Assembly (NCBI GenBank): GCA_051294905.1
Contig: CM119372.1
Span: forward strand, 16,370,001-16,434,000
Source of the DNA: Botryllus schlosseri
Lineage: Eukaryota
Direction: 5' to 3'
Length of the DNA stretch: 64,000 nucleotides
The notes below the pieces were generated by a model. It did not search any database and was not told where the DNA came from. It saw nothing but the letters and a program-made list of their open reading frames with translations. The first letter of the stretch is position 1. Each line of letters begins with the position of its first letter. The translations under genes and the position numbers were made by a program. Shown piece after piece: positions 3,270-64,000 of this stretch.

Positions 3270-3531
3270 GTGTGGCGAGATAGCGCAGTGGTATAATCCG
3301 CGGCTGCAACGCCAATGGGTTGCGGGCTCAAGTCCGACCGAGGTCGACTTCAGATTTCCTATACCTAAGTGTTGGAGATTTATCTAGGCTCCTTCTCGCC
3401 ACCTCATCCGCGTAAGCGGTGTCTTACAAAAAGCCTAGAAGTCGGCAGCTACGGAATAAAAATGAAAATATCGGCCTGGTGTAAATGACCATAGTAGTCG
3501 ACAAACACCATACCTCAAAACAAACAAACAA
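3270..3531 (+). mobile_element. tRNA-derived SINE, family 1
   Basis: A box tagcgcagtgg, B-box-like gggctcaagtcc, (caaa)n tail, ~15-bp imperfect TSD aatacccc(g/a)g(t/c)acag; empty site at ~40215. Confidence 0.88.
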
Positions 3532-9734: not shown

Positions 9735-9985
9735 GTGGCGAGATAGTGTAGTCCGTAGTTGTATGGTCCACTACGCAACACCAATGGGTTGGGGGTTCGC
9801 GTCCGGCCGAGTTCGACCTAAGAATTCATGTCTAAATATTGGAGGTTTCTTTAGGCTTCTCCTCGCCATCTCATCTTGGCAAGGGGTCTCTTACAAAGCC
9901 TAGAAGTGGGCCGTGCTACAGCTACAAAGCGGCAGATACGGAATCGAAATAAAGAAAATCCTCCCGGTATAAAATGGCCAATGGT
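9735..9985 (+). mobile_element. SINE family 1 copy
   Basis: gtggcgagatagtgtag head, ggttcgcgtcc B box, body matches 3270-3531. Confidence 0.8.
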
Positions 9986-10570
9986 CACGTTTTTTGTTGT
10001 TGTTTGCTTTCGGTTATTGCTATCGTCGGACACATACCCGGTATTCAAAATTATTAAAATAAGTACTTGAGTAGGTAATTATTCATCAATTACGGTATTG
10101 CCAATGACATGAATGGGAAATTTCCGTTTCTGTTCCCAGTATATCTTCAAGACTTTAGGATTTGAGAGAAAGTAATAATAAATAGTAGGAAAATTAGTAC
10201 GATCGCCACTAGGCAATAAAACGCACGCCTAGTTTCGAAATTACAGTTTTCAAATCACACTGGAAAGCGTAGCTGTTGATACTGAAGGTATGGCGGACTG
10301 CTTCCGTCCTGAACTACAGTTTGATTCTGGTGACAGATATACGTCAGATATATACAGATATACGTCTGTATATCTATATATATATAAACTCCGCAACTAT
10401 ATGTAGTCTAAATCTGTAATCAACCCAGTACATGTCTTGCTTTTACGGAGATTTGTGACATTCATGTTAAGCGGTACGGAATTGGGTGGATGCTTTGAAA
10501 GTAAGTACATGCCTACGTCGATATAATGGCAACTATGTCGGTCATTGAAATATCGTTGGTATGTCACCAC

Positions 10571-10765
10571 CAATGTTCCCTCTAATTTTTGACGAGTCTG
10601 AGCACACTCAACAACTCACTGCGCAGACCCTTGGAAAACGGTGCGTAACGACTAAAAAAAAAGGTCATCACTTCGGAATTTTTGTGCGCAACATAGAATT
10701 TCTGTGCGCAGAGACCGTCTCAGCACTGCGCATTTGCGCACGTGCGCAGCTTAGAGGGAACATTG
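10571..10765. mobile_element. 195-bp MITE
   Basis: TIR caatgttccctctaa, TSD gtcaccac; empty site at ~55691. Confidence 0.9.
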
Positions 10766-11729
10766 GTCACCACAATATTGCAGCAACACTGTCATACAGT
10801 GGCATCGTAACGCTTCAAAAGTTAGTCCATGTAATAAATACAACTATTGGCCGATATTGCTTGAAAAAAATTTCGTTAGGATCGTCTTCAAAAACGCAGC
10901 GTCATAAGTTTCAAAATATCAAGCTATAGTCAATACACGTCTCGTAACGCTGTTATTATTAAATCACATACCCTTAATAATAACACTGGGCACAGGCTCG
11001 GATCGTGGTGTTAGGAATGACCCGTATACTGAGTATTTGTATCAATGGATTTTATCAACACCACGCTAGATCGGGGCAAGGACCGGAACCGGATTGGATA
11101 TCCGACCGGATTTTCCTATTTTTGTCCGGAGCCGGATCAGTACTTTTTCTGTTACGGCCGGAGTCGGATCGGAGCCGGGTCAGTACTTTTTACTAAGAAT
11201 AGAACAGTCCAAAAACAAAACATACGTAATTGGCAGGTCATTTCACCGCTTATGATGTCATATGTATTATTCGATTCAGCTGGTTACATAATCGTACACG
11301 ACATAATGGTATATTTACCTCGGAAAAAGCTGCAAACGTCGTCGAAATAATTCGAAAACATGTTTTATGCGCGGATATCGCTTTGGAACATTGGTTTTTA
11401 ACCTTCACTAAGCCGCGGAACATTTAGATTACTGGTGCCCAAAATCAACTGTGCATCAACAGAGTGTTAAAATAGCATTGAAATCAGTGGGACTTTTGCT
11501 CTTCCCTTTCAGATACCAGTTCAGAAATACTAGGCTTCTACTTGAGAAGTGTCTTAGTATTGTTTGGCAATAGCGTGATACCAATTGCTTAATTTCAAAT
11601 GATCTCATAAGTATTGGAGATTGAATTGGCAATTAAGAAGGACGGGGGTTTCGATTTTGAACCCATACCTGTCCTGTGTACAGTCCGCCATTCCACACGA
11701 GTTACCAACACAACAATCTATATATAGGC

Positions 11730-17739: not shown

Positions 17740-18585
17740 CATCACAAATATACACCAGACACGATATCCGAGTAGCAACACAGTCCGGACGCACCCCAGA
17801 CACGATGTCCGAATGGCAACACAGTCCGGACATAACACACCACAGACACGATATCCTGGTTGCAAAACAGTCCGAACACACCCAAGGCATGATGTCCGAG
17901 TGGCAAAACAGTCCGAACACCCAAGAAATGATTATAAACACGTTCTAGACACGATGCCGAGTGGCAACACAGTCCGAACACACCCCAGAAATGATGTCCG
18001 AACACACCCAAGACACGATGTCCGAGTGGCAAGACAGTCTGAACACACCCCAGGCATGATGTCCGAACACACCCAAGACACGATGTCCGAGTGGCAAGAC
18101 AGTCCGAACTCACCCCAGACACGATCTCCGAATGACAACACAGTCCGAACAAACCACAGGCTAGATTTCCGAACATACCCCAGACACGTTGTCCGAGGGG
18201 CAAAACAGTCGCCGAACTCACTCCAGACACGATCTCCGAATGGCAACACAGTCCGAACACACCCCAGGCATGATGTCCGAACACACCCCAGATACAATGT
18301 CCGAGGGGCAAAGCAGTCGCCGAGCTCACCCTAGACAAGATGTCCGAGTGGCAACACAGTCCTAACACATCCCACAAATGATGTCCGAACATGCTCTAGA
18401 CACGATGTCCGAGTGGCTAGACAGTCCGAGCACACCCCAGGCATGATGTGCGAATACACCCCAGACACGATGACCTAGGAGCAAATTATCCGAACTCACC
18501 CTAGACACCATTTCCGAATGGCAACACAGTCCGAACACACCCAAGACATGATGTCCGCAAACACACCAGACTCGATGTCCGAGCA
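17740..18585. repeat. Degenerate minisatellite, ~20/41-bp units (cacgatgtccgagtggcaacacagtccgaacacaccccaga)
   Basis: The gtccga/tccga core recurs about every 18-23 bp for ~850 bp. Confidence 0.92.
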
Positions 18586-18990
18586 CGCCCTACTACTATT
18601 GCATTTCCATGTACAAATAGAGTGCTGTGCTCTTGAAACTACAATTTGATCACTTTACAGTCTCAAAACCAAAATCAAACAGCTATGAACGAATTCTCCT
18701 TGTAGCAAACTTTCATTTAAGATCCTATTTGCTTAAATATTTTAATATGTTTGTTAGCAATCCGCCGTCTAAATCGTATAACACCTGACTAATTTTAGAC
18801 CATTGACCAAATTTCCCCTTTCCCAAAATTTCCCCTTTGACCCTAATCTACATGGCATAAATTTCACTTCGAAATATAGACGATCAGCCAGACTATAGAT
18901 AGCTAAGCGTAGGTTAGTTATCTATAATCAGCCAAGCTTCAAATAAATCCAAGTGCCGTATCTCAACTGTCGTCCAACATCTAGCTACAC

Positions 18991-27679: not shown

Positions 27680-30200
27680 CAGTGGCGGCTCGTCCTATAG
27701 GGCAACTGGGGCATTGCCCCACCTAAAATTCTGTTCAATAACAATTCTTTACCATTTATAGACGCACACCAATCTAAATATACCGAAATCACAGCGAAAA
27801 TCGTATTCTTCTTGTCCTTTCTCTTGTAAATGCCCATATATAGCGAAGTCTCTGCGAAAATCGAATTCTCTTCTGTGTTTTCGCTTTGCGAATGCCTAGC
27901 CTGGGCATGCCCCGGTAGCGCTCATAACAAGCTTTCACTATAGAAATTAAACATGGAACGGCAACGACCGATTTTGCAGCTTCGTTCCGCTTCGCCGAGG
28001 CTGGAGTGGAGAGTGGTTTTGCGTAAGCGACTGTAGGATTTCTGGCAATCCAAAAGCTATCTTCCCGAGCACAGAAATTATTGAATATGGTCTTGATCGA
28101 AAGCCACTGCTGCATCTATTCCGAAAATATAAAGCAAAATAATGATCAGGCACTGATCCACCTAGAATCCGTCCTCCAAGTCGAAATATCGACATTGTTC
28201 GAACAATCGGAGAGTCGCAACGGGTCATTGTGTTGCGGTCACCCGATTGTTCTGAACAATGCCAATATTTCAGACTTGGAGGACAGATCCTAGGTGGATC
28301 AGTGCCTGATCATTATTTAAATTTATATTTTCGGAATCAGTGCAACAGTAGCTTTCGATCAAGACCAGATTCAATAATTTCTGCGCTCGGGAAGATAGCT
28401 TTTGGATCGCCAGAAATCCTACAGTCGCTTATGCAAAACAATTCTCCACTCCAGCCCCTGCGAAGCGGAACGAAGCTGCAAAATCGGTCGTTGCCGTTCC
28501 ATGTTTAATTTCTATACTTTCACCGTCTATTCTCTCAAAGCTGCGCACAATAAAGAAACGGTGATTTACTCTCTCCTATTCATAAAATTACCGAGCAACC
28601 GGGGCACAATAGCTCTGTGCCCCTAAGGTGTGATGTAACAATCGTATCTATAGCTGAACTCGGTTACCGTCATATTCGTTTAGTCGACCTTTGCTGGTAT
28701 AGGTCGATTTTGATGGTGTTTCACACCATGAAAACTCTTGAAACTTGGTATGTCATGTCGTGATGGTGGTATTTAACACTGCCCCAAGTTTCAGGGTTTC
28801 TACTTAAGGTTTAGAGTAGTAATTCCGTTTCCGAAGTTGAGTGTGTGCTGATCCGTCATGTATCGCAAACATATTTTACTCAAAAGCCGGTATCGGTATT
28901 CATTGATTTTGACTATCTTCAATACTGAGATTGGTTATGACATTTGGCAAGGTAAGTCTTAATGTTAGTATCGAACGCTGTACCAAGTTTTAAGTTTGTC
29001 ACTTAACTGTGTTAGTGGTAATTTCGTTTCCTAATTCGAATGAGAGCTGACTCGTCATTTATCGCTAACAGATTATACGCAAAGGCGGTATTGGTCTCTA
29101 TTGATTTTAACGATGCTCTCCTTAACTAGATCCGTCATAAGCTTTTGCACGGTATGTCTTGATTTTAGTATCGAACGTTGTGCCAACTCTCAAGGTTGAC
29201 ACTCAATGATTAGGGCAGTAATTTCGTTATCAAGGTCGAGTATGGTAGAGATGTGCTCCGATCTGACACTTTAACCTACAACGCATTGCGGATTTCACGC
29301 AAAAGCAGTGTACCTGCGGTAACGTTAACTGAGATGATGATATCATTCTCAGTTTGCATTCAAATATTTACTTTGATATTATATTCTCCAATGTCAATTT
29401 CACCGTGAAATTGTGGCCTTCAAGCCATCTGCTTGCAACCCCCTGTCAAGCGCGATAGCTATTTCGTTTTCGATGGCGGCTAACAGCTGATCACTTGATC
29501 AGCCTATTCCTCAGTAAATTTTACGCAAAATTCGGTGTTAGTCTGTTCGCAATAATTTTGACAGTGTACCATACCGAAAAGGGCCATGAGACCACTTCTC
29601 GATGATGTCATATAACAGTGTACTAAGTTTAACTCTTTGATCCACGTATTTATTCGGTAATATATTTTCCAAAGGCGATTTCGCAGCAGACCTATAGACA
29701 GTAATAAAGCCGTATGTGTCGTGTTACAGTCTCCAGTTTCAAGGCCAAAATCTCCTGTGCTGTACCGAGACCGAATTTCCGAGGCTGCTATTCTTAGTTC
29801 TTCAGAATGATGTTTTGGATTCAATATGACAGTCCCAATCTATGAGATAACAATTGCGTATCTGTCCGAACTCGTTTACTTTTCCAATTTGGCTAACGCT
29901 ATCTCTCGAGTTATAGTCATTTCCATTTCTGCAGATAATTAGTCGGGTCTAGTGCGAACATGAACCGTGTTGAATCTTTGTTCCGTACGCCGTTTACGTA
30001 GTTACCACACTTCAAGTCACAGCTCACCGGCGGACCTCTCGTGGCACATACGTTAAAATCACTGTTGCCGGAAAATTCATGTTACCGTGCCATCATTAAG
30101 TTACTTGTTTACATTGGAAAACGCCATTGTGACGTCATCTCGATAAAAAGTCGCTTGCAGCCCTTGCCCCACCACCCGATATTGTCACGAGCCGCCACTG
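27680..30200. mobile_element. Nested non-autonomous DNA transposon
   Basis: TIR cagtggcggctcgt, TSD actatagc; three degenerate ~185-bp internal repeats at ~28700-29240. Confidence 0.88.
27939..28516. mobile_element. Fold-back (almost fully palindromic) MITE
   Basis: Arms of ~270-280 bp start tatagaaattaaacatggaacgg; flanked by repeated ctttcac. Confidence 0.85.
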
Positions 30201-32608
30201 ACTATAGCTACCGATATTATCCCATAAACAAGTTGTACAGCAGTAGCCAACAACCCAATCGCACGGATTTGATTTTTATGATACTATCGACATATCAAAT
30301 CAAGATGGATCCCGTACGCCTGCTACGTTTTTTACGTTGGATAACGATGTATTATTATTTATATCAATCCCATTGATTGGTTGAAGATCATCATTCGTTG
30401 ATTACATGCATGTAGTGTATTTCGTTCTTGATGTTGTATGATTGTGGGTCAAGCTCACAGCAAAGAGTCACTAAATATTCACAAAAGAAAAGCTGAATAT
30501 TTCGAGTAAACTTTTGTAACAACCCATGTAAAATCGTTGCTCGTTTAGTGCTGATTTTTCCACGCTGATAGCGCCATGCATAGAGTGGTCTGAAGTTGAA
30601 CTGCAAAGAATTTCAGCCAAATATGACATAATGACGCGAAAAATTGTAATATATGAAAACGGTTCACAGTGCAGAACTTACCAAGGTTCGTTTGTGAACG
30701 TGAACCTCTAAATTTCCGAGGTTCACACACCGAACGTTAACCTCACGTTCACACCATCGCTACTTACTACCGATATTACCCCATTAACAAGATATACAGC
30801 AGTAGCCAACACCCCAATCGCACGGATTTGGTTTTTATGATACAATAAACATATGATATAAAGATTGACCCCGTGTGCCTGTTAGATTTTTTACATCAAA
30901 CAACAATATCAATTTCATTGATTGGTTGAATCAGCATCATTCGCTGATTACCTACATGTAGAGTATTTCGCTCTTGGTGTTGTGTGTTTGCGTGCAAAGC
31001 TCACAGCAGAAAGTTACTAAATATTCACAAACAGAAAGCTGGATATTTCGAGCAAACTTTTGTAACAAAGCAAATAAAATTTTTGAGATTGTCCAGTTGC
31101 ATGCTCGTTTGGTGTTGATTTTTAAGGCTGCCATCTCCATGCATAGAGTGGCCCGCAGTTGAAATGTAATAAATTTCAACCAAAGATGATGTAATGACGT
31201 TACAATTGTAATATATGAGAAAGGTTCACAGTGCAGAACCTACCAAGGTTCGTTTGTGAACCTGAACCTCTAAATTTCCGAGGTTCACACACGGAACGCA
31301 AACGTGAACCTCACGTTCACACCATCCCTACTTTATTGTATGGCCTACAAAATGATATTTTGTCGTTTTTGTTTTCAAAAATTTTGGTGACCCTTGATAT
31401 ATAGCCACGACTGCATACTGTAGGACGTGGTAGTCGGGTATACGCGAACCTTCCTTTGTAAAAATTACGGCGCATTCTGATATGAAAATGTGACTTCATG
31501 GCGGTCACGTGAATCCGTTAGAGCAGGGCTCCCAACCTTTTTCATGGTCGTGACTCCAAATTTCGATTTGAAAATGTTCCGCGGCCCCAGTCTCAACTTG
31601 GCGTGCCGATTACTAAAAAAATGGTCAGCACCTTCGCCCAAACCTGCTCATGCCCCATGTGGGAAGCTGGTGACTATGTGCGCAGCACTGGCAATTATGA
31701 ATTATGAACTCGCCAACCTCCGTCTATCAAGATTATATAGCAATGGATAATATCGATATTTTGAGGCGATTTCTATGTATATCTAATCGAAGTAGATAAC
31801 GATCTATATAGTTATTCGACCGCGTCGATAGCGTGTATGTATATTGTTAACACAGCACTACCGGCCACTTGTAGTTTTCCTGGAAGGCGAAACTCCCGTA
31901 GTGGCCAGCCACTTCCTCAAATGTCGGTATTTTTATTTCGACAAATGAACTAACATTTTCAGAAATGAGCCGACGATAGCACCCAGTTAATTGGCATTCT
32001 TTTAATATTCATTGGCATGTATTTTTTCGTCTACCCGACACCATATACTTATAGCATCGTCATATCATGTAGGTATGCCAGGAAAAAGCTCGACCAAATA
32101 AAAAGTTTTCCTGTGTGCTCATGCTCACTAATTTGGCCTAGTAAAATGAATACATAACTACATCTAGTTATGAACACTTTTTGGGGAATAATATGTATGT
32201 CTCGGCCAGGCATAAGAGGACTGGCTAGTCAACAGTGCTATGTTGCAGACGGCTATCCCCTCACCCTGGAATTTTCACGGCAGCTAGGTGTCGCTATGCT
32301 ATATACAAAAAATCGCAAATTGTAGTTCTGCTTTGTACAATTTGAATTTGACAAGTCGAAAAATGCACCGATGCGCTGAACATAACATCTCATAATTGTG
32401 GTGCCCCTTTTCTGATCTAACGCCTGCGTTAGGAATTACTAGGACAGTGTCATTCTATACTAAAATTTGAAGGAACATGTGCAACCCATCATGGAAAAAT
32501 TAAATTTTGAAATTTCAAAATTTTAAATCCCAGGTTATTTTTTAAAAAAGTTTGCTGTGGAGTTCTGTTATTCAGAGCAGGGTAGACCTAGGCCAAACGA
32601 GTATTAGC

Positions 32609-34961: not shown

Positions 34962-37489
34962 CAGTGGTTCCCAACCTTTTTCGACTCATCGCCCCGTTTT
35001 GAGCTCCACACCGATCATCGCCCACCAAATATTGGGAACCGCAAAACAGCAGTTCGTCACCCCCTAAAACGTTGGTCTTTGGCCCCATAGGGTGATAAAC
35101 CACCTCAGACCCCCTATCAGCCAGTGGGATTTTTTTCGCTACATATCAGCTATACCCTATTTCATGTACTGTTTGGTGAGTCACCGTATTTCGCCTAAAC
35201 GCGCGAAGTGCCACAAATTTATACAATTCACGTTTGAATCGGTCAATATGGTCGGGAATTGCATATAAATTGCTATGCATTTTTTCATCCTCTTTCTGCT
35301 CACGTAATCAGATTTACCGGTAGAGCTGAGCGTAGTGTGTTGGAAAAGGTAGGACACACCTAAATAATAATTAAACATCTTCGGACGTATACCCGTTGGC
35401 AGGAACGAAACAGCACTTCGTCAGGCCACTCCAATGAACTTTGGTCTTGGGCTCCCATAGGGTGATAAACCGACCCCCATCACGTTGTTTGCTTTTGCCA
35501 CGAAATTAGGCGGAATCGTTGTTATATTGACTTCGTTACATGATGCTATCTGGCAAATAATTTTTTGGCGTTTGTCCTGTAGGGTTAAGGTCGCCAGGAC
35601 AGGAACATTCGACGCCAGCCATTGAGGCACATATGGACAATTAAACATGTATGTATATATATCGAAGTTTTCGGTCAGCACAAGGGCATTCCTTTTCGGC
35701 CAATGTCTTCTCGCTGCTGATCGTTCTGGTACACTTCTCGAAGTCGCATGTTACATGACCTCTAACTTCATATGTCTTGGTGCGTTGTGGCGCAGTAGTG
35801 GCTGACGCCGAAGTCTCCCATTTCCTTAGATCATGCGTATTTTTGTTGGAGGACGGGTACCCCAAAGTCAAGATATATGAAAATATAAAATCGCGCGCAG
35901 CGAGAAAATTTTTTGAAAAAGTTGCATGAATTTCTAAAAAATTACTCTACAATTTATGTTAATTCACGAAATATTTTTTGGCCCCCTTCGAGTTCGGGCC
36001 CCCCACCGCCAATTGGGGGGTTTGGGGTGCGGTAGTTACGGTCCCGACTCCAATATAGCCGTCTTAACGCGCCATCGCCCGCCTATCGCCCCCTTCGTTG
36101 TTTTCGCCCCCTATCACCCCCTTCGTTATTTTCGCCCCCCTAGACCGCCAAATCGCCTCCTGGGGGGCGATATCACCAGAGGTGGTCAAAGTAGTCAATA
36201 AAGCTACTCAAGTATAAGTAGAAGTAGCCACGAAAAAATCTACTCAAGTACGAGTAGAAGTACTTTTTCAATAGGCCACCTAAAACTACTTGAAGTAGCA
36301 GTAGAATTGACTGACTTTAAATCTACTCAAGTAAGTAAGTAGTTTTGAAAACAGTCTTAATTCGTTCGCACGGACTGTCAAAAGCTGCGAATTGAGCTAT
36401 GCGGAAGACGCAGAGAGCTTGATTCGTATTGATGCATCCCAGGAGGTATCAATTTTCGACTGAAGAAGCATTTTTTCGCATAATGGGATGCAAATTATTG
36501 TATTGATATGAAAATGCGCTACCAACCCTTTGTTTACTAGAAGACCCCGTTTTAGAGAGTATCATGGCATGGCGCCCTACCTCACATTATAAGGCCCCCA
36601 GTTTAGGCGAAGAGCAACACGTAGAAGTTTTATCGGATGCGGTTTCATCACTTATCGATAGTAGTATACGTTAATAACAAATATTGTGGAACGTAAAAGT
36701 GATATTTAGTGTAGCTTTATTTTCGGAAAATAGAAGAATTACTACACTTGCTTCTATGCTTCAACATGTATGTTCTGCAGACAAAAGAACTGCAAGTAAT
36801 TAGAACTCAAAGTATGATACTCGCAATTGAAAGTGAAATACAAACACCAATTCTAAAAAACGAAAACTATACTTCATGTCTTTTGTCCATAAAGATTCAA
36901 AGGTGATCTGGTAAAACAGGTGTAACGTTCAAAAAAGCTGGATTTTCCAGATTAGCAAGACACGTAATGGGCTGCTAGATTACGATATGATTGGTAATTG
37001 CTAGATTACAAAACGGTAGTTTCAAACGTTATGGTGGGCCATATTTACAGTGATGAAATATTTGATTCGGGCGACAATGCGGTGTGAGTGGAACCAAGCA
37101 ATCCGGTACCTAAATTATATTCACTGATACTTTCCTGAAAACATATTTGTCACTCCAGAACTACTGTGCGCTAAGCGCAACAAAATTTCTGGGCATTACA
37201 CTACTTGACTTTTATGAATATTAAATGTTGGTACTCCGTGAAAACAGCCCCGAAATTCCTCAGGCTATCTTTCGTATTGGGGGATTAAACTACTTCTACT
37301 TGACTAACTGAAAATAGCGAAAAGTAAGTAAGTAGATCACAAAATATTACGAAGTAGAAGTAGAAGTGAGAAAATCAGATCTACTTGAGTAAGTACCAGA
37401 AGTAGAGGAAAACTACTTGAGTACTTTCAAAAAGTAGAAGTACTTCGTTACTGACCACCTCTGGATATCACCTACGTTGGGAACCACTG
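34962..37489. mobile_element. GGGGCGA-family MITE expanded by inserts, including AAGTAG-rich MITE copy 3 (36177-37463, minus)
   Basis: TIR cagtggttcccaac, TSD atgtagca, empty site at ~154; inner TSD gatatcac. Confidence 0.9.
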
Positions 37490-41929: not shown

Positions 41930-42208
41930 ATTGTTTGTTTTTGTGGTATTCATGGTTTTTGTCGACTACTATGGTCATTTACACCAGGCCGATATTCTTC
42001 AATATTTTCCGTAACTGCCGACTTACAGCACGGTCCACCTCTAGGCTTTTTGTAAGACACCGCTTACGCCGATGAGGTGACTAGGAGGAGCCGCCTAGGT
42101 AAACCTCCAACACTGAAGTACGAATTCTGAAGTCGACCTCGGTCGGACTCGGACCCACCACACGTTGACGTTGCAGATGTGGATCATACAACTGTGTTAT
42201 CTCGCCAC
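41930..42208 (-). mobile_element. SINE family 1 copy
   Basis: Full head-to-(caaa)n homology on the minus strand. Confidence 0.82.
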
Positions 42209-45200
42209 AAGAACGTGATTTCCGGTAAGTTTTCGCAATGGCCCTGTAGCCACCGATATCAACATGAAACGCCTCGTGACTTGGTGCATATATTTTCAAG
42301 TTTTTTGATCTTCGCGGTCCTAGTAGTCGTAGGCAATTGGAGTTAGATTTTATGAAGATATATGGCCAAAAAGCACTGTATGATATCGATGTATACCATA
42401 ATAGTATTGTTGTACACTATAGGACGCCAGTAATCGTGTAATTGTTGGCTGCATCAGCAGTTGTTTCATAATTATTATTGCTACCTTTATCTCATTTTTT
42501 CAGCAATTTATCTGGTTCAATTAGAACCGAGATCAACTCCAGATTCGATTCCTACGTGTGAGAGATTTATGTAGACTTCTTATCGCCACCCAATCAAACA
42601 AGACACTGAAAACGACCCTGAAAAACGTGGGCTGTGCTGTAAGTCGGCATCTCAGGATTGGTGAATAATAATATCGGTCTGGTATAAAATGACCCTAGAT
42701 ATCAAAACCAGCCTGTCTCTAAAGAGACTGGTAATCTGTTTATTGCCACTATGCATGAATTAAGCATTTTCAGTAGTCACTAATCATGTGCACAGATGTC
42801 TCTTGTAACTGTGTGTTGACGTGGACAATGTTGCCGAATGGCAAATAGTTGTGGTCAGAATGACTTCGATTGTCGCTTGTCATTAACTAGCATTCAATAT
42901 GACACTATAGCAGGGACGGCCAACCCATGGCCCGCGGGCCAAATGTGGCCCGCGAGAAGGTTTTAGGTGGCGATGTAATTCTCGAAATTAGTTATAATGT
43001 CAGAAAAATCAATTACCCAGGTAATTAAGTATTTGTGAACTTGCAAGGCCAACCGAAAATTTGATTAGCCTGACTGGGAACTTTGAGATATTGATGACTA
43101 AAGTCTCAGTTCAGACGCATTGGCGTAGCCAGTACTTATCCACATTTTCGTAGATCTTCGTATATGACCACAAAGTATAATATTTCGTGGCAGATTTCTT
43201 TGACTTGATATTTTTCTTCGCACTTCCCGCGATTTATTGTCACTCGATTTCTTGATTATAGTCAGGGTTGCCATCGACATGGACCCAAAAATATGGACAG
43301 TCGAAAAATTAGATTTGCATTAAAAAAGCGTTTTCGTACATACTTTGTATTTATACGTGCCGTGACATATCACATCCCATACTTTTTGCCAGAAACAATC
43401 TGCTCCAGCAACTCCTTGTTATTAGAAAGTGCTTCATGGATCTCACGACAGCTAAGGTCTAGGTCAGTGGTTCCCAACGTGGGCGATATCGTCCCCTAGG
43501 GGGCGATTTGGCGGTTCAGGGGGGCGAAAATGACGAAGGGGGCGACAGGGGGGCGAAAATAGCGAAGGGGGCGATAGGGGGCGATGACGCATCAAAACGG
43601 CTGACCTTTTTTTTTTTTTTCTTAGTCAACCCACGGAAATTTAGTTACAAAAGTGTGTAAAATTTGACATCGAGACGAAAATTTGACCTTTTTTTTTAGT
43701 CAACCCGCCGGGGATTACGGTTTGTATGCATAACTAGCTTGTAGAGCAGTGGAAAAGAGTCGTTTCCGGTAAAGATCTTCATCCACTTGGTCTCCGGCTC
43801 AACCTTGCGGAACACATCATTTGGAATCTTCTTCAGCAGAGTGTTAACAGCCGAGACTTCATCAAACAACTCATCTTTCATTGCCATTGGAAAATCAATT
43901 TGCTTTGCCAACCCCTTCATTTCCTCGTACTCGATTGCTTGTTCTTTCAGCAGGATCCAGTTGATGTGCGTTGGATGCTTCTCAAATCGATGCCACTTGG
44001 TGATGTATTCCAAGGTAATGGTGTAGAACTCCTGGAAGCTCGCTTTGAGAACCTTAGCATGCTCTTCATCGACACTTTTTAGTAGTTCGCCTGTTGTTGC
44101 CCCGAAAAACCCTGAACACTGGCGTTGCAATATTTTGATCTTGAAAGATTCAATTATCTCTGCCAGTTCTGGAAATAATGCATTTGACTTTTGCAGTAAT
44201 AACAGTGGTTTATTAAAGAGCAAGAGAGCGCTGTGGAGGAATGATACGATGATCAGCGACTCTTCTTTTTTAGAGAAATCCTCCAATATTCTTGCTGAAT
44301 GTTTCAGCGAAAGAAAGTGCGCTTTGAGTGGTTCCCAGAGATCAATCCTTCGCTCGAGTAGGCTACAGCATCAAGTGTGGTCCAGCGAGTCGGCGTGTGA
44401 GTTGGTAGAGTCGAATATTTGATATCAAGTTCTTCACAGAAATGCTTGAGCCTCAGCGCCCTACCAGTTTGGCTTTTGAAGTGGCTACCAATCTTTAATA
44501 CGTTTGTTTCTATGTCAATTGTGAGGCGCCCTGATCCCTTCTCTGCTGCGTTATGCAACATATGAGCAGGGCAGCCGACTGGGATCAGATGCAATGTTTG
44601 CTCTTTGAGGCGAGAGAAGACGTTGTTTTTTCCACTATGCTGTGATCCTCCAAAATTCACTAGTGCATTATCGGCAGAAAAGAATGACAGCTGCTTCATG
44701 TCTAAGCCATTCATTCTCTTGAATAGAGGAGAGAATAAAGTTTGTGATCTGTGCCGAGGTCTCGCCTGGCATCGGTCGCAGGTCAAGAAGACGTACTCGC
44801 ACTCCAACTTTGGCGTTAAAGAATCTGATGACTAGAGGAAAAAGCTTCACCTCGTTATGATTAGAGGCGTCAACCGAGATGGAAAAAGGCTGTTCACCAA
44901 GTTCAGACAAAATCATTCTTTGAGCGTATGGGGCAAGAACTCCAATAACAATGCTTATAGTCTTGGTCCTGGCCGAAGCAAACTTCTTTGCGATGTTGGA
45001 ATCGGGGAATATTGCTTGAAACAATTGCGATGTGCAATCGTCGGTGAGGAATGATTGCTGGTGTTCGACAGTATGGAACGCCCAGGTACCCTCAGCAGCA
45101 GCTGCCTTGTAGTCTGTGGTCGTTGGTGCTGATCGACTTGTAAAAAAATTATTCATTGACTGGCTCGAATTAATCATTATTACACACTTCTTGTGTTTTT

Positions 45201-46159
45201 TGGTGTCGATGTGAGCCGAAATAGCGGTCTTTCCTATGGCCTCCAGGTTAATGTCACAATTGCAGATATTGCAATGTGCAAAACACTCGCCCTTCAAGCC
45301 AGGGCTTTGGAGCCGGAGCCCGGAGCCGGAGCCCCGGAGCCGTGCATTTTTACCGGAGCTGGAGCCGGAGCCGGAGCCGGAGCCACTTATTTGAGGGGTA
45401 GCTCCGGCTCCGACGTATTTCATAAGATGCTATTATATATGCAACAACCATATCTGCTGAATTCACATAATTCAACAGCAGGCCTTCGCGAAATTAAGAG
45501 TCTTTTCCTCTTTGGCGCTACGTTTTCCGACCAACCATATTCCTGGGTATTTAACAGCAGAACAGTCATATATTCAATGTTAAATTTTCGTACATGAGTG
45601 CCAAGGTATGCGAAATATGCCTGTGAATATGTGGGTATTCGGCATACCCGCAATTTCATCATCAGCATTACCTTGTTGGCCAATTGTACTGTTCGAAAAT
45701 AAGGATCACTATGTATTACGCGAAATGGGAGACAGGATAAAAACGTGATTTCGTTGCACATGTCGATATGACGAGCACGAGCCGAGAAATTCCATCTCAT
45801 CGTTGCTATGAATCGAATGAGCAAATACTCGTTCTTTCGTGATAGTTCTTTAATCGGGCCGTGAAATTGGACAGTGTTATTGAGTATGCAATCAGACATG
45901 CTAATTGGAATTCATTACTGCGCATGATCGTTAATTCACTCCAGTAAGGATTTTTCGAGCGTAAAAAGGGGATGGCAAAAGAGTAGCCCAAAACGCCGTT
46001 TCACTCAGCAAACAATTATCGCGGTGCGAGCTACTCAATGCGATGCAGGACCCCATGGTATTTTATGTTGGAGTCAAATTACTGATTTGATACGCGATTT
46101 CCAATTTGTAATCATCTGTTTCGTAAATTCATTCTTGATGTCTGCTTGATACTCTAGTA

Positions 46160-53840: not shown

Positions 53841-54116
53841 CGGCGAGATAGCGTAGTGGTATAATCTACAGCCGTGACACCTATGAGTTGTTGGTCCGAG
53901 TCCGACGGAGGTCGACTCTAGAATTTCTACCCAAGTGTTGGAGGTTCATGTAGGATCCTGCTTGTCATCTCATCCTTGCAAGCTCGGTGTCTTATAAAAA
54001 GACTAGAAGTGGGCCGTGCGACAAGTCGGCAGTTACGAAATAAAAATTAGGAATATCGGCCTGGTGTAAATGACCTCGACAAACACCGTGAATACCACAA
54101 ACAAACAAGCAAACAA
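53841..54116 (+). mobile_element. SINE family 1 copy
   Basis: ggcgagatagcgtagtgg head through (caaa)n tail. Confidence 0.82.
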
Positions 54117-57100
54117 GGTCAATGTTTCAAATTGTTACGACATACGTTCCAAAGGCCCTAATTCGTAAAACAACTCACTCGGGGCCTACGATATCGTAGG
54201 CCCCGAGTCACTCAATGTTCATGATTGCTATATGAATATGTCACCATCACCTATAAAGGATTAACAGGCATGTCTAAAAAATAGAAGGCCGAAATCTAAA
54301 ATTCAAAGAGCATTAAAAATTTGTTGACTGGAGCCCTTTCAGATTGTGCCCACCGGGTAGTCGTGTTCAAGGAGCATGATTAAGTCGGTGTTATGACAGA
54401 AACACGGTACGGTACGGTACAGACACTCGGTCAAGGAAGGGCGAATCTCAAAAGAAGTGCAAGCTTCGCTCAACAACCGGCTATTTCACCAAGCTGCACA
54501 TTGCTCGGAAGGCAGAGATCAAGACAATAAGCTTTGTAGTATCCCGAATACATTTAAAGCCTTAATAGAAAAAAAAAACATGGATTGGGGTTTACAGAGA
54601 GTTCAAATGTATCATGTTTAACATTGTTTCTAATTAAGACGGCTAATAAAAATTAGTTTCTGATAATAAACTGTCACTTCTCATATCAACGCAGCCACTG
54701 AGCAGCATTTATCACCAATGTAATTCGCTGCTTTCAATTTAGAAATAAAATTAATACGCTGCAGAATATATACTTCAAATTATGATTCGGCCCGCCAACG
54801 TATTTTCCGCTCCTCATTTGGCCCGCGGAGATAAATAATTGCCCACTCCTGATCTATATGATCTTGAACTTCAGTCTGATATATTCAAATCGAGAACAAC
54901 TTTAATACGGAGCTGCATGCGGCCAAGGTTTCATTGGACCATCGGATACGCAAATATATAATTTTGAAATTTTCAATAGTTCACATTATTATATATAGCA
55001 AAAATATTATTTACTTTTCGATCGCAAATTCCTGCTAACTCAGTATTCCCATAGTTTCGGATACGTCTATTCTGCAGTGAAATGTATGCATGAATGGTGG
55101 CATATCGCCGATTCACTAGAAAGCTAGGATTTGCCTTTAGTAACTCATTTTTTGTTGTTGTTTGCTTTCGGTTATTGTGCTCGTCAGACACATAACCGGT
55201 ATTCAAAAGTAATAAAATAAGTACTAGAGTAGGTAATTATTTATCAATCACGGTATTGCCAATGACGGGGATTGGGAATTTCCGTTTCTGTTCACAGTAT
55301 ATCTCCAAGACTTTGGGATTTGAGAGAAAATAATAATAAATAGTAAAAAAATTAGTGCGATCGCCACTATGCAATAAAACGCACGCCTAGTTTCGAAATT
55401 ATAGTTTACAAATTGCACTAGAAAGCTTAGATGTTGATAATAATGAAGGTATGGCGGAATGCTTCTGTCCTGAACTATCAGTTTGATTGTGGTGACAGAG
55501 ATATATCGAAATTCCGCAACTCTGTAGTTTAAATCTGTAATATACCGAATGCATGTCTTTCTTTTACGGAGATATGTGACATTCATGTTTATCGCTACGG
55601 AATTGGGTGGATGCTTTAGAAGCAAGTGCATGCCTATCGATATAATGGCAACATCGGCAACTATGTCGGTTATTGAAATGTCGTTGGTATGTCACCACAT
55701 TATTGCAGAAACGCTGGCATACAGTGGTATAGTAACGCTTCAAATGTTATTGCATTTATTAGATACAACTGTCGGCCGATATTGCTACTAAAAATTTTCG
55801 TCTGGATCGTCATCAACAAGGCAGCGTTATAAGTTTTCAAATATCAAGCTATAGTCAAGACACGTCGCGTAACGCTGTGATTATTAAATCATATAACCTT
55901 AATAGTAGCACTGGGAGTAGTAGGGTTTGATCAAATATACGCCCGCCAATCCCAGAAGGCCACGTCGCCTTAATTGCCACGCCTACATTGCCACATCATC
56001 CGCCCATTGCCGCGCCTATGGGACGCCTATTGCCACATCATCCATCCATTGCTATATCATCGCTGCATTGATTTCCGCATCTTGATACTTTTCTCAGATA
56101 TTGTATTATGTGTATTTAGGACTAATATCATCCGTCCATATTTTTTAAACTTGATTTTATGTGTACAAGTTACGGTTTCTGCAGTTTCCACATTTTACGA
56201 CTTATGATTGCTGCGTCAAAACTTACCTTGGCTAGAATCGACAGATTTTCTATTATGTGTATTTAGGACTATGTATTTAAATTCCTATTCAGATTATACA
56301 TAAATGCGAAAACTATGATGTCTATGTAAGGTTATATTCTCCGGATAATATTATTAATATCAAAATTCTACACATCATCACTAATTACTTAATATAAAAT
56401 GTGATTTTGAGCGCTGCGACTTGATAATATGAACCCCTACGCTTCTGATGCATGATTTTTTGTGATAAGGACCTAGGTAACATTCAGAGTCTGCAACGAT
56501 TGTTTGGATATACATTATAGCAATACCCCGCTAAACTATAGGCGGTTATATTACTCTATTGCTCAGAGATAACTCATCCGTCCATATTTTTAAACTTGAT
56601 TTTATGTATACAAGTTACTGTCTCTGCAGCCTCCACATTTTACGACTTATTTTCATTAGACGCAGGCAAGCGATTCTCCAGTTCGGAGCTACGGAAACAA
56701 ATCACTCGCATGTGCGCGTTCCGAATAGTCTTGTAGAATTTTCTAAAGTCGTAACAGCTTAGTAGCATATACGCGAATCCCAAGGTGAAAATAATCGAAT
56801 GAACTATAGCCGTAGGCGTGCGATTCGCAGGGCTTTATTTATACAAACTCTATCGATGCCTGTACACGAACCCCAGCGTTAAAACGATTAGGTCTAATTA
56901 ACACGTTCTGAAGCCGAAAATTTAGTCAACATCATTGAGATAGCCATGATTTGAAGATGGTGATCGAGTGTGACAATAGCACTCGCCAAGGTTAGACAAA
57001 CATAACCTTAAACTACTCTCTACTTCACAAAATATAAAGTTATAAAAGTAAGCAGATTTTGTCGATATTGCTTTGTGATGATTTTGATGTTGTTCCATAC

Positions 57101-58632
57101 CGATTGGGAAGATAGGACTCCTAATTCCTTAACTAACTACATAATCCCTAGTAACGTAGTCAGACGCATAACGGAATTTACGCAAATCGATATTGCTCTG
57201 CGATAATTTTGACCACTATGTTTTGATAATAACTTGCTTCCGAGAGATAGATAACATTCATTATACGTTAGATGATACTTTTCCTTTATATTCTATTATG
57301 TGTATTTAGGGCTAATGCGACATCACTATGTTTGCGACAGGCCTGATTTGAACACGCTAATTTTGCAAATTAAACTTATCACCCAACACGAACACTCAAT
57401 GAAGAGCACCCCGGAGCACCCACATAAATGCTCCACAATTTGTGACGTATTATATACTGAGCATATAATAAGCTGACAAAACTGATACTTGAGTACTCCG
57501 AAATGTACAAGTACTTTACCTTTACACGACGTTTTTGTAAAATGAATACTAATGGTACGCGAATGATCATAGACTAAGCTTGCTTTCAGAGTTGGAAACT
57601 AAATGCATATGAAAATTTAACTATGTTTTCCCCTCACGCATCAGATGTAGGCCTACTCAAGTGTTTATGAGGCGACGAATAGTTCGAAGGTTGTTGGGAT
57701 GCAAGGACGTCACATAGAATTGTGGAGTTTTCTGTAAACTATATTCCAGTGATCTATTTTCAATCACTATACTTTTATTAATCTAAACTAAGTACTGTTA
57801 GTAGGCAAATCCTAGAAAAGTATCCTCTGATAAAAGCAGGAGTAATTCGTTATCTCTGAAATAAATAGATAGCGCGCAATATGAGCGGTGTTACGATGAC
57901 TGACAAATACTTTGAATTAATGCATAGAAGTAGCGATTTCGAACTACGTAAAAAGTTAGTCGAGCTCACGCATTTTCCATTAAGTTTCGAAGATGCGTTT
58001 TATAATTGCTCTAGGTGTGAAATAGACATCGCACTCTTGCGGGGAAACAACATGAATTCAGTTTTCACACCGCAGAAACACAGCCGCTTGGTTAACATCA
58101 CAAAACCGCAATTGAACTCAAGATTGCCATACACGGAATCGCTGTTAACCATGTCTGACTGCGGCGTTTCGACGAGTAACGAATTCTCGTATTTAGTAAT
58201 GATTGTGACACATAGTCAAAACAGCGACAGTTTTCACAACCCGGTACATACATTGAACCAACTGATGTAAGGTGAAACACTACGTTCGCAGCAAAAAAAA
58301 GTTTGCAGGGTATGACCACCACCAACATATAGAGTAGTGAGTGAGTAATTAAACTACATACCCCGATTTTACTATATTCCGAGATCCGGATCACGATTCA
58401 AGTCTACCTGAGAATCCGAACTACCCTGTGAAGTTGATATATCAAGTTGTGAACCGTGAAAGGGTTGTAATCTCGGTGAAATAGTGTGCGACACATTTTT
58501 CCACAAGTCGAATGCATGTCGGTTCATACTAAGACCATTAGGAATTTGCACAATGACAGGTTATTGAAACCGATGCCAAAACTCAGTATAATAGATTGAT
58601 ATTGACCGCGTGTATGTTTGACATATATGCAG

Positions 58633-58740
58633 CATCTTGGATCGGCGGTGGAGCACTGAATGGCACTGCAGAAGTCATCTACTCTCCTAAGCTTGGACTG
58701 ATCTGGGCTATTGCGCCACTGTGTTACGGGTTTAGTGTTC
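58633..58740 (+). pseudogene. Orphan exon fragment of a high-affinity choline transporter (SLC5A7/CHT1-like) gene
   Basis: tgcag acceptor followed by (A)SWIGGGALNGTAEVIYSPKLGLIWAIAPLCYGFSV, matching the recalled CHT1 segment ATWVGGGYINGTAEAVY..GLAWAQAPIGYSLSL. Truncated by a local repeat (also present at ~57508). Confidence 0.75.
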
Positions 58741-59149
58741 AAGTACTTTATCTTTACACGACGTTTTTTGTAAAATGAATACTAATTTTATTGAAAAAAT
58801 AAAAAATAAAAAAGAGCGAAAAATTACATTATATCCCGGAACGCAACAAGAAAAATCGTATGAATTTGTAAACTACTTGTTCATGACATAATAATAATTC
58901 TACTTGTATACTTTTTCACATTTTATAACACTTTAAGTAATACTTAACAGTTTCAGTTTTAAATAAAATACGGAATATAAACTAATCGAAAAATTCGGTA
59001 ACCAATTTCGCGTAGGCTATGCATGCATACAAATGAGGAAAGTTACATCAACGCGTGTTAAAGTAGCTGTATCGAGTTATCGAATGATTTTCTCCTTACA
59101 TCAAAACAACTAGAATGTATAACTAAATTAAAAAACGTATCTAAATGAG

Positions 59150-60300
59150 CTCCAGGGCATTGTGATTATGCTGCATACCAAATTTCATCACACATTTCAT
59201 GATGGAACAACTTTAAAACTAACGCAGTTCTATAGCAACTTTTGCCTAAATCTGTTTTCGGTAGCGTGTACATATACATAGTCAGATTTAATAACAGAAT
59301 TATCATGCTAATATGTGACTCCTCACCTTGAAACTAGGTACGTAGTTGTAGGACATTGTGATTATGCAGCATACCAAATTTCCTCACGCATTTCATAATG
59401 GAACAACTTTAAAACTAACGCGGTTCTACATCGACTTTTTGCGTACATCTGTTTTGCGTGGGGGGCGTATAGCACGTACCTATACATAGTCAACTTTAAC
59501 AACGGAATTACCATGCTTAACATTGATACCCAACTCGAAACTTGATACGTAGTTGTAGGACATTATGGTAATGCAACATGCTAAATTTCATCACACATCT
59601 AATGATGGAACACCTTTAAAACTAACGCAGTCGAATACCGACTTTTACGCATATCTGTTTTGCGTGAACATAGCAGATACCTATACATAGTCAATTTTAA
59701 TAGCAGAATTACCGTGTTAAACATTGAATTCCCACCTTGAAAGTTGGTACGCGGTTAAAGGAGATTATAACAATGCACCATACCAAATCCCATCACACAT
59801 TTCATGATGTAACACCTTTAAAACCAACGCAGTTCTATACAGACTTTTGGCTAAATCTGTTTTTCCGTAGCGTAGCACGTACCTATACATAGTCAACTTT
59901 AATAACGGATTTAGCATGTTAATAATCGACTCCCCACCTTGAAACTCGGTACGCAGTTGTAAGACATTATGACAATGAACCATGTCAAATTTTGTTACGC
60001 ATTTCATGATTGAACAACTTTAAAACTAACGCAGTTCCATACCGACTTTTGCGAGTGCGTAGCACGTACCTATATGCATACTCAACTTTCATAACGGAAT
60101 TACCGAGCTAAACATTGAATGCGCAACTTGAAGATTGGTTCACAGGTGTAGGGCAGTATGACAATGGAACACATCAAATTTCATCACACATTTCATGATG
60201 GAACACCTTTAAAACTAACGCAGTTCTATACCAACTTCGCGTGAATCTGTTTGCGGGAGCGTAGCACGTACCTATGCGTGATCAACTTTAGTGATGGAAT
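59150..60300. repeat. ~200-bp tandem satellite (about 6 units), mirrored at 63085-64000
   Basis: aatttcatcacacatttcatgatggaaca(a/c)ctttaaaactaacgcagtt recurs at ~59181, 59377, 59584, 59786, 59988, 60177. Confidence 0.9.
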
Positions 60301-63300
60301 TACATATGTAATTAAGTTTCAACACTTTTACAATGATTCGTCTTGCTTCCTATAACACCCCACTCGAGAAAATGCGTCGTAGGATATAGATGAAACTAGC
60401 ACCACTCATCAAGACCGCTGAAAACAGTACATTTCAACATTTAGTAGCAGTACATTTCTAGTAAAGTACGAGACGTGATGATTTCCGAGTGAGTTAAAAA
60501 GTAAGTATTGCAGGTATAGTTTACCTGAAAACCGAATACTCTGAAATAGAAGTAGATGCAGTGTAAATAGTTAATCACTTGATTAAGTTTAGTGCAAGCA
60601 GATAAAACCTATACTTGAGTAGTACAAAATGCACGAGTACTTCGCTATCGCCTCCCTCCACGTAATAAGTGTCTACGGTTTAAGACTGCTTTTACCGATA
60701 CTTGTCGGTTTCAGTTTTAGATAGAATTCGGAAACCAAATAATTTCATAAACATAAGCTAATTTAATGAATTTACTCGAATGTACTATGCCGCGCTGATA
60801 AGATTAATTATAATATACTTATCATGTTACAGCGATTTTTCTAGCGTAGAAATCTTTAAAATGTAGTAAGCAGACCAAATGAAGATATTCGTTGAGCTGA
60901 ATAAACATAAAAAATACTCTAGACTACTTTATCGGTACTTTACAGTTACAGTTTTAGATAAAATTTGTCCCTTTCACCTATAATTACAACTCCTCGCTAT
61001 CTAAACATGTTTAGAATATATTATTTGCGATGATACGAACCCGTGAAGTACTCAAGTTGCTTTTCGTAGGATATAGATGAAACTGACAACACTCACCAAG
61101 ACCAGTGATCCACTGAAAAAAGTACATTGTAGCAGTAAAGTCCTACTAAAGTACAAGAAGTAATGATTTCCCAGTTAGTTAAAAAGTAAGTATTGAGGTA
61201 TAGTTTGCTCGAAAAAGCGAAAAACTCTGACATAGAAGTAGATGCAGTGTAAATAGGTAATCACTTCATTAAGTATAGCGCAAGCAGGCCAAACCTATAC
61301 TTAAGTACTGCAAATGTACAAGTACTTCGCTATGTTCTCCCTCCACGTAAAAAGTGACTAGGTTTTAGAGTACTTTATCGGTACTCGACAGTTTCAGCGT
61401 TAGGTAAAATTTGGTAAGACTTTAAATTTTAAAGTAGTTTGAGCTTACGTTTGTATCACCCTGACAAGTAACATTATCAGACATGAAAATGATACTATCA
61501 CCGAATATAGAAGTTAACACGCGTCAATGTGCTTCGGAATTCACGAGAAATTGCTTACTAAGAGAAGTATATTGTTGTATACACAATAGTGGAGAGAATA
61601 TTTAAAATGTAGTAAGCAGGCCGATGGGTATTCGTTTAGTTGTATAGACATAAAAAACATTCCCGCGCGCTCTTAAACAAAACACTTCCTAACCCTACCA
61701 CCTAATACTAAGACGCGCGCGGGAATGTTTTTATGTCTATACAACTAAACGAATACCCATCGACCTGCTTACTACATTTTAAATATTCTCTCCACTATTG
61801 TGTATACAACAATATACTTCTCTTAGTAAGCAATTTCTCGTGAATTCCGAAGCACATTGACGCGTGTTAACTTCTATATTCGGTGATAGTATCATTTTCA
61901 TGTCTGATAATGTTACTTGTCAGGGTGATACAAACGTAAGCTCAAACTACTTTAAAATTTAAAGTCTTACCAAATTTTACCTAACGCTGAAACTGTCGAG
62001 TACCGATAAAGTACTCTAAAACCTAGTCACTTTTTACGTGGAGGGAGAACATAGCGAAGTACTTGTACATTTGCAGTACTTAAGTATAGGTTTGGCCTGC
62101 TTGCGCTATACTTAATGAAGTGATTACCTATTTACACTGCATCTACTTCTATTTCAGAGTTTTTCGCTTTTTCGAGCAAACTATACCTCAATACTTACTT
62201 TTTAACTAACTGGGAAATCATTACTTCTTGTACTTTAGTAGGACTTTACTGCTACAATGTACTTTTTTCAGTGGATCACTGGTCTTGGTGAGTGTTGTCA
62301 GTTTCATCTATATCCTACGAAAAGCAACTTGAGTACTTCACGGGTTCGTATCATCGCAAATAATATATTCTAAACATGTTTAGATAGCGAGGAGTTGTAA
62401 TTATAGGTGAAAGGGACAAATTTTATCTAAAACTGTAACTGTAAAGTACCGATAAAGTAGTCTAGAGTATCTTTATGTTTATTCAGCTCAACGAATATCT
62501 TCATTTGGTCTGCTTACTACATTTTAAAGATTTCTACGCTAGAAAAATCACTGTAACATGATAAGTATATTATAATTAATCTTATCAGCGCGGCATAGTA
62601 CATTCGAGTAAATTCATTAAATTAGCTTATGTTTATGAAATTATTTGGTTTCCGAATTCTATCTAAAACTGAAACCGACGAGTATCGGTAAAAGCAGTCT
62701 TAAACCGTAGACACTTATTACGTGGAGGGAGGCGATAGCGAAGTACTCGTGCATTTTGTACTACTCAAGTATAGGTTTTATCTGCTTGCACTAAACTTAA
62801 TCAAGTGATTAACTATTTACACTGCATCTACTTCTATTTCAGAGTATTCGGTTTTCAGGTAAACTATACCTGCAATACTTACTTTTTAACTCACTCGGAA
62901 ATCATCACGTCTTGTACTTTACTAGAAATTTACTGCTACTAAATGTTGAAATGTACTGTTTTCAGCGGTCTTGATGAGTGGTGCTAGTTTCATCTATATC
63001 CTACGACGCATTTTCTCGAGTGGGGTGTTATAGGAAGCAAGACGAATCATTGTAAAAGTGTTGAAACTTAATTACATATGTAATTCCATCACTAAAGTTG
63101 ATCACGCATAGGTACGTGCTACGCTCCCGCAAACAGATTCACGCGAAGTTGGTATAGAACTGCGTTAGTTTTAAAGGTGTTCCATCATGAAATGTGTGAT
63201 GAAATTTGATGTGTTCCATTGTCATACTGCCCTACACCTGTGAACCAATCTTCAAGTTGCGCATTCAATGTTTAGCTCGGTAATTCCGTTATGAAAGTTG

Positions 63301-64000
63301 AGTATGCATATAGGTACGTGCTACGCACTCGCAAAAGTCGGTATGGAACTGCGTTAGTTTTAAAGTTGTTCAATCATGAAATGCGTAACAAAATTTGACA
63401 TGGTGCATTGTCATAATGTCTTACAACTGCGTACCGAGTTTCAAGGTGGGGAGTCGATTATTAACATGCTAAATCCGTTATTAAAGTTGACTATGTATTG
63501 GTACGTGCTACGCTACGGAAAAACAGATTTAGCCAAAAGTCTGTATAGAACTGCGTTGGTTTTAAAGGTGTTACATCATGAAATGTCTGACGAAATTTGG
63601 TTTGGTGCATTGTTATTATGTCCTACAACCGCGTATCAACGTTCAAGGTGAGAATTTAATGTTTAGCATGCTAATTCTGTTATTAAAATTGACTATGTAT
63701 GGGTATATGCTATGTTCACGAAAAACAGATATGCGTAAAAGTTGGTATTCGACTGCGATAGTTTCAAAGGTGTTCCATCATTAGATGTGTGATGAAATTT
63801 AGCATGGTGAATTGCCATAATGTCCTATAACTACGTATCAAGTTTCGAGTTGGGATTCAATGTTAAGCATGGTAATTCCGTTATTAAAGTTGGTTATGTA
63901 TGGGTAGGCTACGTGCTATACGCTCCCACAAAACAGATGTACGCAAAAAGTCGATGTAGAGCCGCGTTAGTTATAAAGTTGTTCCATCATGAAATGTGTG
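59384..64000. repeat. Large inverted repeat (palindrome), arms >=2.3 kb, 33-nt spacer 61676-61708
   Basis: 61709-64000 is the reverse complement of ~59384-61675. Each arm also holds a diverged ~690-bp direct repeat (starts ~60377 and ~61065). Confidence 0.96.

Follow-up and report, generated by a model that had tools for sequence, protein, structure and literature searches.

Intact vertebrate Mavericks are 12.7–24.6 kb long, with terminal inverted repeats (TIRs) of 46–1,447 bp, target-site duplications (TSDs) of 6 bp and (AGT)2//(ACT)2 as their commonest end motif (PMC8097293, in excerpt). For self-synthesising elements of this kind a panhandle model has been described, in which the single strand folds on itself (PMC4046053, in excerpt). 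Non-autonomous copies were apparently absent from a study of anole Polintons, as far as its excerpt goes (PMC3014272), and Tlr1, which has been termed a non-autonomous Polinton, carries genes of its own (PMC5499653, in excerpt). A palindrome spanning a whole element with Maverick ends is not described in the full-text literature searched, outside of which lie most subscription journals and repeat-database entries, and the excerpts of two further papers (PMC6431247, PMC10680173) add nothing on palindromes.

Here we describe a candidate for such an arrangement in a window of 64,000 nucleotides of Botryllus schlosseri DNA (the whole stretch analysed; all positions count from its first base). An earlier, sequence-only reading had placed a Polinton/Maverick-like terminus at 55916 and, provided that the downstream palindrome is symmetric to it, taken it for one end of a gene-less snap-back derivative. 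In our analysis, 55916 is rather probably the left end of an element of about 11.5 kb that is non-autonomous, gene-poor, modular and palindromic, has Maverick/Polinton-type ends and sits in an older host repeat; this element is possibly chimeric, or homogenised from its centre outward. The explanation draws on the junction at 55915/55916, the end motif and the subterminal repeats behind it, on a palindrome with a modular arm and a step in arm identity, and on coding content without any known domain (Table 1).

Table 1. Features of the palindromic locus, its flank repeat and the second Maverick-type end (positions in the window; a dot marks features without strand).
Feature	Position	Strand	Details
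Host flank repeat, copy A	9990..10990	.	Sole comparison copy; carries 195-bp MITE
Second Maverick-type end: AGTAGTAGGG with GC-rich subrepeats (0.85-kb array)	17747..18597	-	Past the 10-mer, nothing in common with the end at 55916
Host flank repeat, copy B	55148..55915	.	Ends at junction; 81.7% (594 columns) and 85.3% (225 bp) vs copy A
ACTGGG, candidate left copy of 6-bp TSD	55910..55915	+	Last six bases common to copy A
Terminal motif AGTAGTAGGG, including (AGT)2 Maverick end motif	55916..55925	+	Same 10-mer at 18597, minus strand
GC-rich subterminal subrepeats, ATTGCCAC units, 14–19-bp period	55966..56071	+	TRF and repeat families D4, D14
Outer-arm modules	56083..57316	+	44-bp motif x3 (56083, 56230, 57273); 78-bp motif x2 (56128, 56574)
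47-bp motif common to outer arm and inner module copies	57470..57516	+	Partners 60596–60642, 61282–61327; 81–83%, pairwise E ~1e-7
Sole long ORF, 129 codons from ATG	57881..58270	+	As long in 10/300 shuffles
Tandem array, 202-bp unit, 5.7 copies	59154..60303	+	75% matches
Outer visible part of palindrome (mirror 63589–64000)	59385..59796	.	41 differences / 409 aligned bases
Inner left arm (mirror 61709–63588)	59797..61675	.	10 differences / 1859 aligned bases
Central loop, 33 nt, A/C-rich, closed by GC-rich stem	61676..61708	.	Fold -57.6 kcal/mol, z -19, 0/200 shuffles
Right arm, running past window end	61709..64000	.	

The host repeat that precedes 55916 has only two copies in the 64-kb window, both starting with a T/TTG tract, which align in two blocks (9990–10570 with 55148–55698 at 81.7% identity, and 10766–10990 with 55691–55915 at 85.3% over 225 bp). 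Both copies diverge after ACTGGG, copy A running on into cacaggctc and copy B into AGTAGTAGGG from 55916, which bears out the exact break in homology that the sequence-only reading had seen there. An interruption of the flank repeat cannot be proved from two copies. In copy A, a perfect hairpin of 12 bp (10951–10985) lies directly before the CTGGG at the breakpoint, and a natural end of the repeat at hairpin plus CTGGG is possible; a CCCAGTG end, the TIR partner of a CTGGG end, was found nowhere for this repeat within the window. We infer that an interruption is likelier than an insertion landing exactly at the edge of the repeat, and that ACTGGG is the left half of a 6-bp TSD, the right half of which would lie beyond the window. 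The far flank had been predicted to read ACTGGG followed by a cacaggctc-like sequence. Its ACTGGG part holds whether or not the flank repeat ends naturally; the cacaggctc part is valid only if copy A is intact past the breakpoint, and is less secure, being taken from one copy that may itself end at CTGGG.

A 20-base word used to look for third copies of the flank repeat led to 12 metagenome loci, none of which (0/12) has BLAST homology to the window, and these were rejected as chance matches. Copy A itself contains a 195-bp MITE (10571–10765), whose inverted ends are perfect over 17 bp and whose target duplication is the 8-bp GTCACCAC. Directly past the breakpoint of copy A comes an imperfect inverted repeat, about 75 bp in length (hairpin and repeat together span 10951–11075). 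Other repeats in the window are a perfect loop-less 32-bp palindrome (54177–54208), a small foldback element of 578 bp (27939–28516; 244-bp arms 93% complementary, CTTTCAC repeat on the flanks), a tandem duplication (30208–31333) whose units, each of about 560 bp, are 79% identical, and a family of ~270-bp repeats with a (CAAA)n tail (3271–3532, 7437–7603, 9734–9973, 41931–42209 and 53842–54119), which we take to be SINE-like.

The sequence from 55916 opens with AGTAGT, one of the two 5' ends, (AGT)2 or (AG)3, that mark Mavericks/Polintons, and the Maverick-like terminus proposed earlier thus has the motif commonest in vertebrate Mavericks (PMC8097293, in excerpt). Among 187 points in the window at which interspersed homology ends, AGTAGT or AGAGAG follows only at 55916, with 0.14 cases expected at the exact offset. 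Taken alone, the 6-mer at the end of homology is weak evidence, suggestive and not decisive. Behind it, sequence and repeat analysis agree with the earlier description of a AGTAGTAGGG start followed by GC-rich subrepeats: ATTGCCAC is found exactly at 55973, 55987 and 56029 and as variants at 56006 and 56048, TRF detects a 19-bp period over 55986–56061 (score 53), and GC is 51.5% in 55916–56080 vs 36.3% in 56081–59153. We infer that these subrepeats are a candidate origin or protein-binding zone. The terminal patterns of this end matched nothing in metagenome contigs or in viral contigs, and beyond the 10-mer of Table 1 the end has no second copy in the window. If 55916 is the end of a mobile element, genomic copies starting exactly at AGTAGTAGGGTTTGATC with differing flanks would be expected.

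AGTAGTAG has six occurrences in the window against 1.26 expected, and one of the others, at 18597, likewise extends to AGTAGTAGGG, a 10-mer that occurs in the window at 55916 and 18597 only. At 18597 it stands 14 bp from the end of the GC-rich array (subrepeats of 24, 41, 65 and 108 bp; GC 52.9%), and past the 10-mer the two ends have nothing in common. Each is thus a 10-base end followed by GC-rich subrepeats, i.e. the same layout in two unrelated sequences, and this pairing is stronger support for the motif beyond chance than the count of the 6-mer. For the 18597 end we found neither a partner end within the window nor an upstream TSD (0 of 14 upstream ATTGCA sites are followed by AGTAG), and its terminal pattern had no match in viral contigs.

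The small number of flank-repeat copies, their common T/TTG start and the 0.14 motifs expected by chance would also suit a coincidence, in which the flank repeat ends by its own nature at the hairpin and CTGGG and only chance has put AGTAGTAG behind it. The palindrome would then be a local inverted duplication of separate origin, or a fold-back made by the assembly. We give this little credence. GC-rich subterminal repeats come straight behind the motif, just as they do at 18597, the flank repeat lacks a CCCAGTG left end in the window, and the arms carry 10 and 41 differences around an asymmetric loop, where a fold-back artefact would be identical.

Returning to an element that starts at 55916, comparison of 59385–64000 with its own reverse complement gives 96.9% identity, a large inverted repeat. 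Its centre is at 61692–61692.5, which, by four anchor pairs, puts the mirror of 55916 at 67,468–67,469 and gives a predicted element length of 11,553–11,554 bp, in agreement with the ~67470 and ~11.5 kb reckoned in the sequence-only reading. The far end, predicted to read CCCTACTACT and then ACTGGG, would lie past the window's last base, near 67,468. Visible symmetry starts at 59385 and runs inward, with 55916–59384 lacking a visible mirror; the inverted arms are at least 2.3 kb as seen and 5.8 kb as predicted. The central loop includes CCTAACCCTA, which we presume to resemble a telomere-type repeat.

The arms differ by 0.54% in the inner 1.86 kb vs 10% beyond about 59797 (Fisher p 1e-22, for a boundary, 59796, that was picked after inspection of the data), and the step, at 59797/63588, falls inside the fourth 202-bp unit. 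Of the symmetric palindrome assumed before, the inner arms, 99.5% identical, stand up and the uniformity does not. As the symmetry is non-uniform, the far end may lie at a shifted position or come from another copy, and the step means that no single event equalised the arms over their full length. Arms produced by the fold-back of a read would be identical, and the palindrome is therefore either biological or a join of two real copies. Fold-back copying or conversion may have proceeded from the centre and halted after 1.86 kb inside the array, two related copies may have recombined inside the 202-bp array, or the step may be an assembly join. Recombination or an assembly join would break the TSD prediction, and the element class could still stand.

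Past the step, mirror units are mutual best matches (L2–R2 94%, L3–R3 89%, compared to 75–86% for non-mirror units) and lie in register with zero net shift, and there are private changes on both arms. The right units R2 and R3 carry one base (in 1 column) that is absent from all six left units. We also considered, and rejected, that a left unit had been copied over one on the right, as this fails to explain the differences in the outer arm. These details bear on a composite locus, in which the true Maverick-type end at 55916 would belong to a truncated or separate copy and the palindrome to another or later element (nested, recombined in the 202-bp array, or merged by the assembler via the near-identical inner arms); its far end would lack ACTGGG and the predicted flank. 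An abrupt step within a tandem array is what such a locus might show, and the base peculiar to R2 and R3, the lone partner-less end at 18597 in the same window and a ~780-bp difference in module layout between copies (see below) point the same way. Mirror units that are best mutual matches, in register, past the step and private changes on both arms do not fit it well, nor do the even GC and common motifs that tie the outer to the inner arm (see below), and we regard a composite as unlikely. Whatever its origin, the step from 0.5% to 10% is not predicted by a uniform model in which the arms are reset at each jump. It is a caution against dating insertions simply by how far the arms have diverged and, at the same time, a usable clue to mechanism.

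Besides the motifs listed in Table 1, the modular arm holds a 51-bp motif twice, and the inner left arm has a duplicated 360-bp module (60377–60734 and 61064–61417, 79%). Interspersed BLAST matches cover 0% of 55916–64000 vs 38.7% of 1–55915; another stretch of the window, 6,701 bp long, is also without them. GC is even throughout (outer arm 36.3%, inner arm 36.2%, right arm 36.2%). The outer segment (55916–59153) gives five matches to the inner arm at E<1e-3, compared to none for 14 of 17 control segments and 1–4 for the remaining three. Its best local score with the inner arm is 52, a value that none of 60 shuffles reaches; three of the 17 natural controls come to 49–51, by way of a host MITE and the 200-bp tandem at 28.7–29.3 kb, and a fainter relative of the 47-bp motif is found inside the host MITE. 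Outer segment and inner arm have 19 11-mers in common, more than any of 53 window segments (53/53) and any of 200 shuffles (200/200). It is likely that the end at 55916 is continuous with the palindrome.

Under permissive scoring, two of the modules are faintly like host repeats. The 202-bp unit matches the tandem at 28.7–29.3 kb at 59% over 484 bp (E 1e-14). Of the 360-bp module, one part is 67% identical over 125 bp to subterminal sequence of a 1.29-kb MITE (E 3e-6). This suggests that the arm modules were captured from host repeats, or share ancestry with them, rather than being folded helper genes. The ~200-bp tandem repeat, which spans 28700–29260, resembles the 202-bp unit on the opposite strand. 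The 1.29-kb element is non-autonomous, with CAGAGGTGGTCA ends, and is present in three copies (1023–2309, 21476–22766 and 36175–37463), the first of which has an 8-bp target duplication; presumably it is hAT-like.

Long modular non-coding inverted arms with internal tandem repeats of about 200 bp are also what is seen in foldback elements of the Tetris/FB type; Tetris, from Drosophila virilis, has ~220-bp repeats in its TIRs (PMC4079207, in excerpt). Together with the faint host-repeat likeness of two modules, this would agree with a classical foldback DNA transposon moved by a cut-and-paste transposase, its AGTAGT start being coincidental. The Tetris TIRs, however, are given in the same excerpt as at most 1,735 bp, enclosing a variable middle domain and flanked by 8–10-bp TSDs, as opposed to a 5.8-kb arm and a 33-nt loop here, and two independent ends in the window begin with the Maverick motif. 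A foldback transposon of this class is, in our judgement, a very improbable source of the locus.

The element that we propose at 55916 appears poor in genes. Frames of at least 50 codons overlapping 55900–64000 number 33, of which 31 were covered by the Pfam scan (two were left out), and none of the 31 reached the Pfam cut-off. The longest stop-free frame in 55916–64000 has 133 codons. Genes for pPolB and a retroviral-like integrase, which an autonomous Maverick would have, are absent from the 8.1 kb seen, as are those for capsid, ATPase and protease. Nor did the 11 scanned frames of at least 100 codons in the window, most of them outside the element, contain Maverick domains, so that no helper was found there. 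Among the window's other frames, three overlapping ones on the minus strand at 43696–45429 (253, 175 and 224 codons) have no Pfam match and look to us like a frameshifted DNA transposase. Rfam had no matches in 54000–58700 or in 58900–64000.

The single long ORF within the element, at 57881, has no homolog of comparable or larger size, no family and no Atlas match (PHROG E 0.08), and a single-sequence structure model yields no confident fold (pLDDT 38.7). It is probably not a conserved gene. The term "gene-less" used before is likely to be right, with no known domain in 31 frames, though the 129-codon ORF may possibly be coding. The only close relative of this ORF is a protein of 50 aa (P0001), encoded on a single public contig of 1,416 bp. 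The two agree at 34 of the first 35 residues, after which P0001 goes on with a word encoded about 780 bp further on in the window. The match and the different layout of modules indicate that the arm has another copy or allele, in which the 129-codon frame is not kept. Two other candidates were rejected, one matched via a 7-residue word within an unrelated, long frame on a viral contig rich in GC (L013), the other a repetitive protein of 1876 aa (P0002). A search of sequencing runs returned the stretch or part of it in 20 rows from 9 studies, with no RNA among the matches listed; the four rows above half of the words all come from one sample, possibly the source.

How an element of this kind could be propagated may be sketched from the panhandle model, which reportedly goes back to Kapitonov and Jurka in 2006. 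A released single strand would fold into a hairpin whose open end would be the same duplex origin as that of a Maverick panhandle. The protein-primed polymerase of a helper Maverick (terminal protein plus pPolB) could then copy the hairpin, and the helper's integrase could insert the product, making the 6-bp duplication ACTGGG. The arm would have been built in the manner of foldback elements, from duplicated and captured modules, more than from folded-back coding DNA of the helper. As for the snap-back origin suggested earlier, the near-identical inner arms would suit it, while a modular arm with two modules faintly like host repeats, and outer arms 10% apart, speak against it in its simple form.

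More tentatively, and with less confidence than we have in the element itself, the locus might represent a satellite that parasitises a Maverick, i.e. a heritable, integrated whole-element palindrome that keeps only the ends, has its arms filled with duplicated and captured modules to near helper length, and renews their identity by fold-back copying that starts at the central hairpin, this copy being an intermediate halted 1.86 kb from the centre. A near-helper length could suit the helper's capsid. Were this true, the renewal halted inside the tandem array would be a direct trace of Maverick-type DNA copying. An abundant dependant with nothing but the ends would mark the sequences that are required in cis, and the course of copying could be read from the identity profile along its arms.

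Among described systems, Tetris has comparable arms, and its excerpt states no Maverick end motif (PMC4079207). AAV snapback genomes are self-complementary too, have viral ends and replicate only with helper proteins; they are transient pieces of their parental parvovirus, whereas the element here is chromosomal and without shown homology between arm and helper (PMC8235507, in excerpt). Tlr1 and the transpovirons are linear, related to Polintons, bounded by terminal inverted repeats and devoid of an active pPolB, but they encode a helicase, Tlr1 also capsid, ATPase and integrase, and a palindrome of the whole element is not described for them in the excerpt (PMC5499653). An autonomous Maverick/Polinton is matched in the (AGT)2 end, in the candidate 6-bp TSD and in a predicted 11.5 kb that is near the 12.7-kb lower limit, and differs in its pPolB, integrase, ATPase, protease and capsid frames, none of which is present in the 8.1 kb seen here, and in TIRs of 46–1,447 bp, compared to arms that here measure at least 2.3 kb within the window, and a predicted 5.8 kb in full, and that meet at a 33-nt loop (PMC8097293, in excerpt). 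By this comparison the element at 55916 is not an autonomous Maverick, having no core genes in the part seen, and would work like a dependant of Mavericks.
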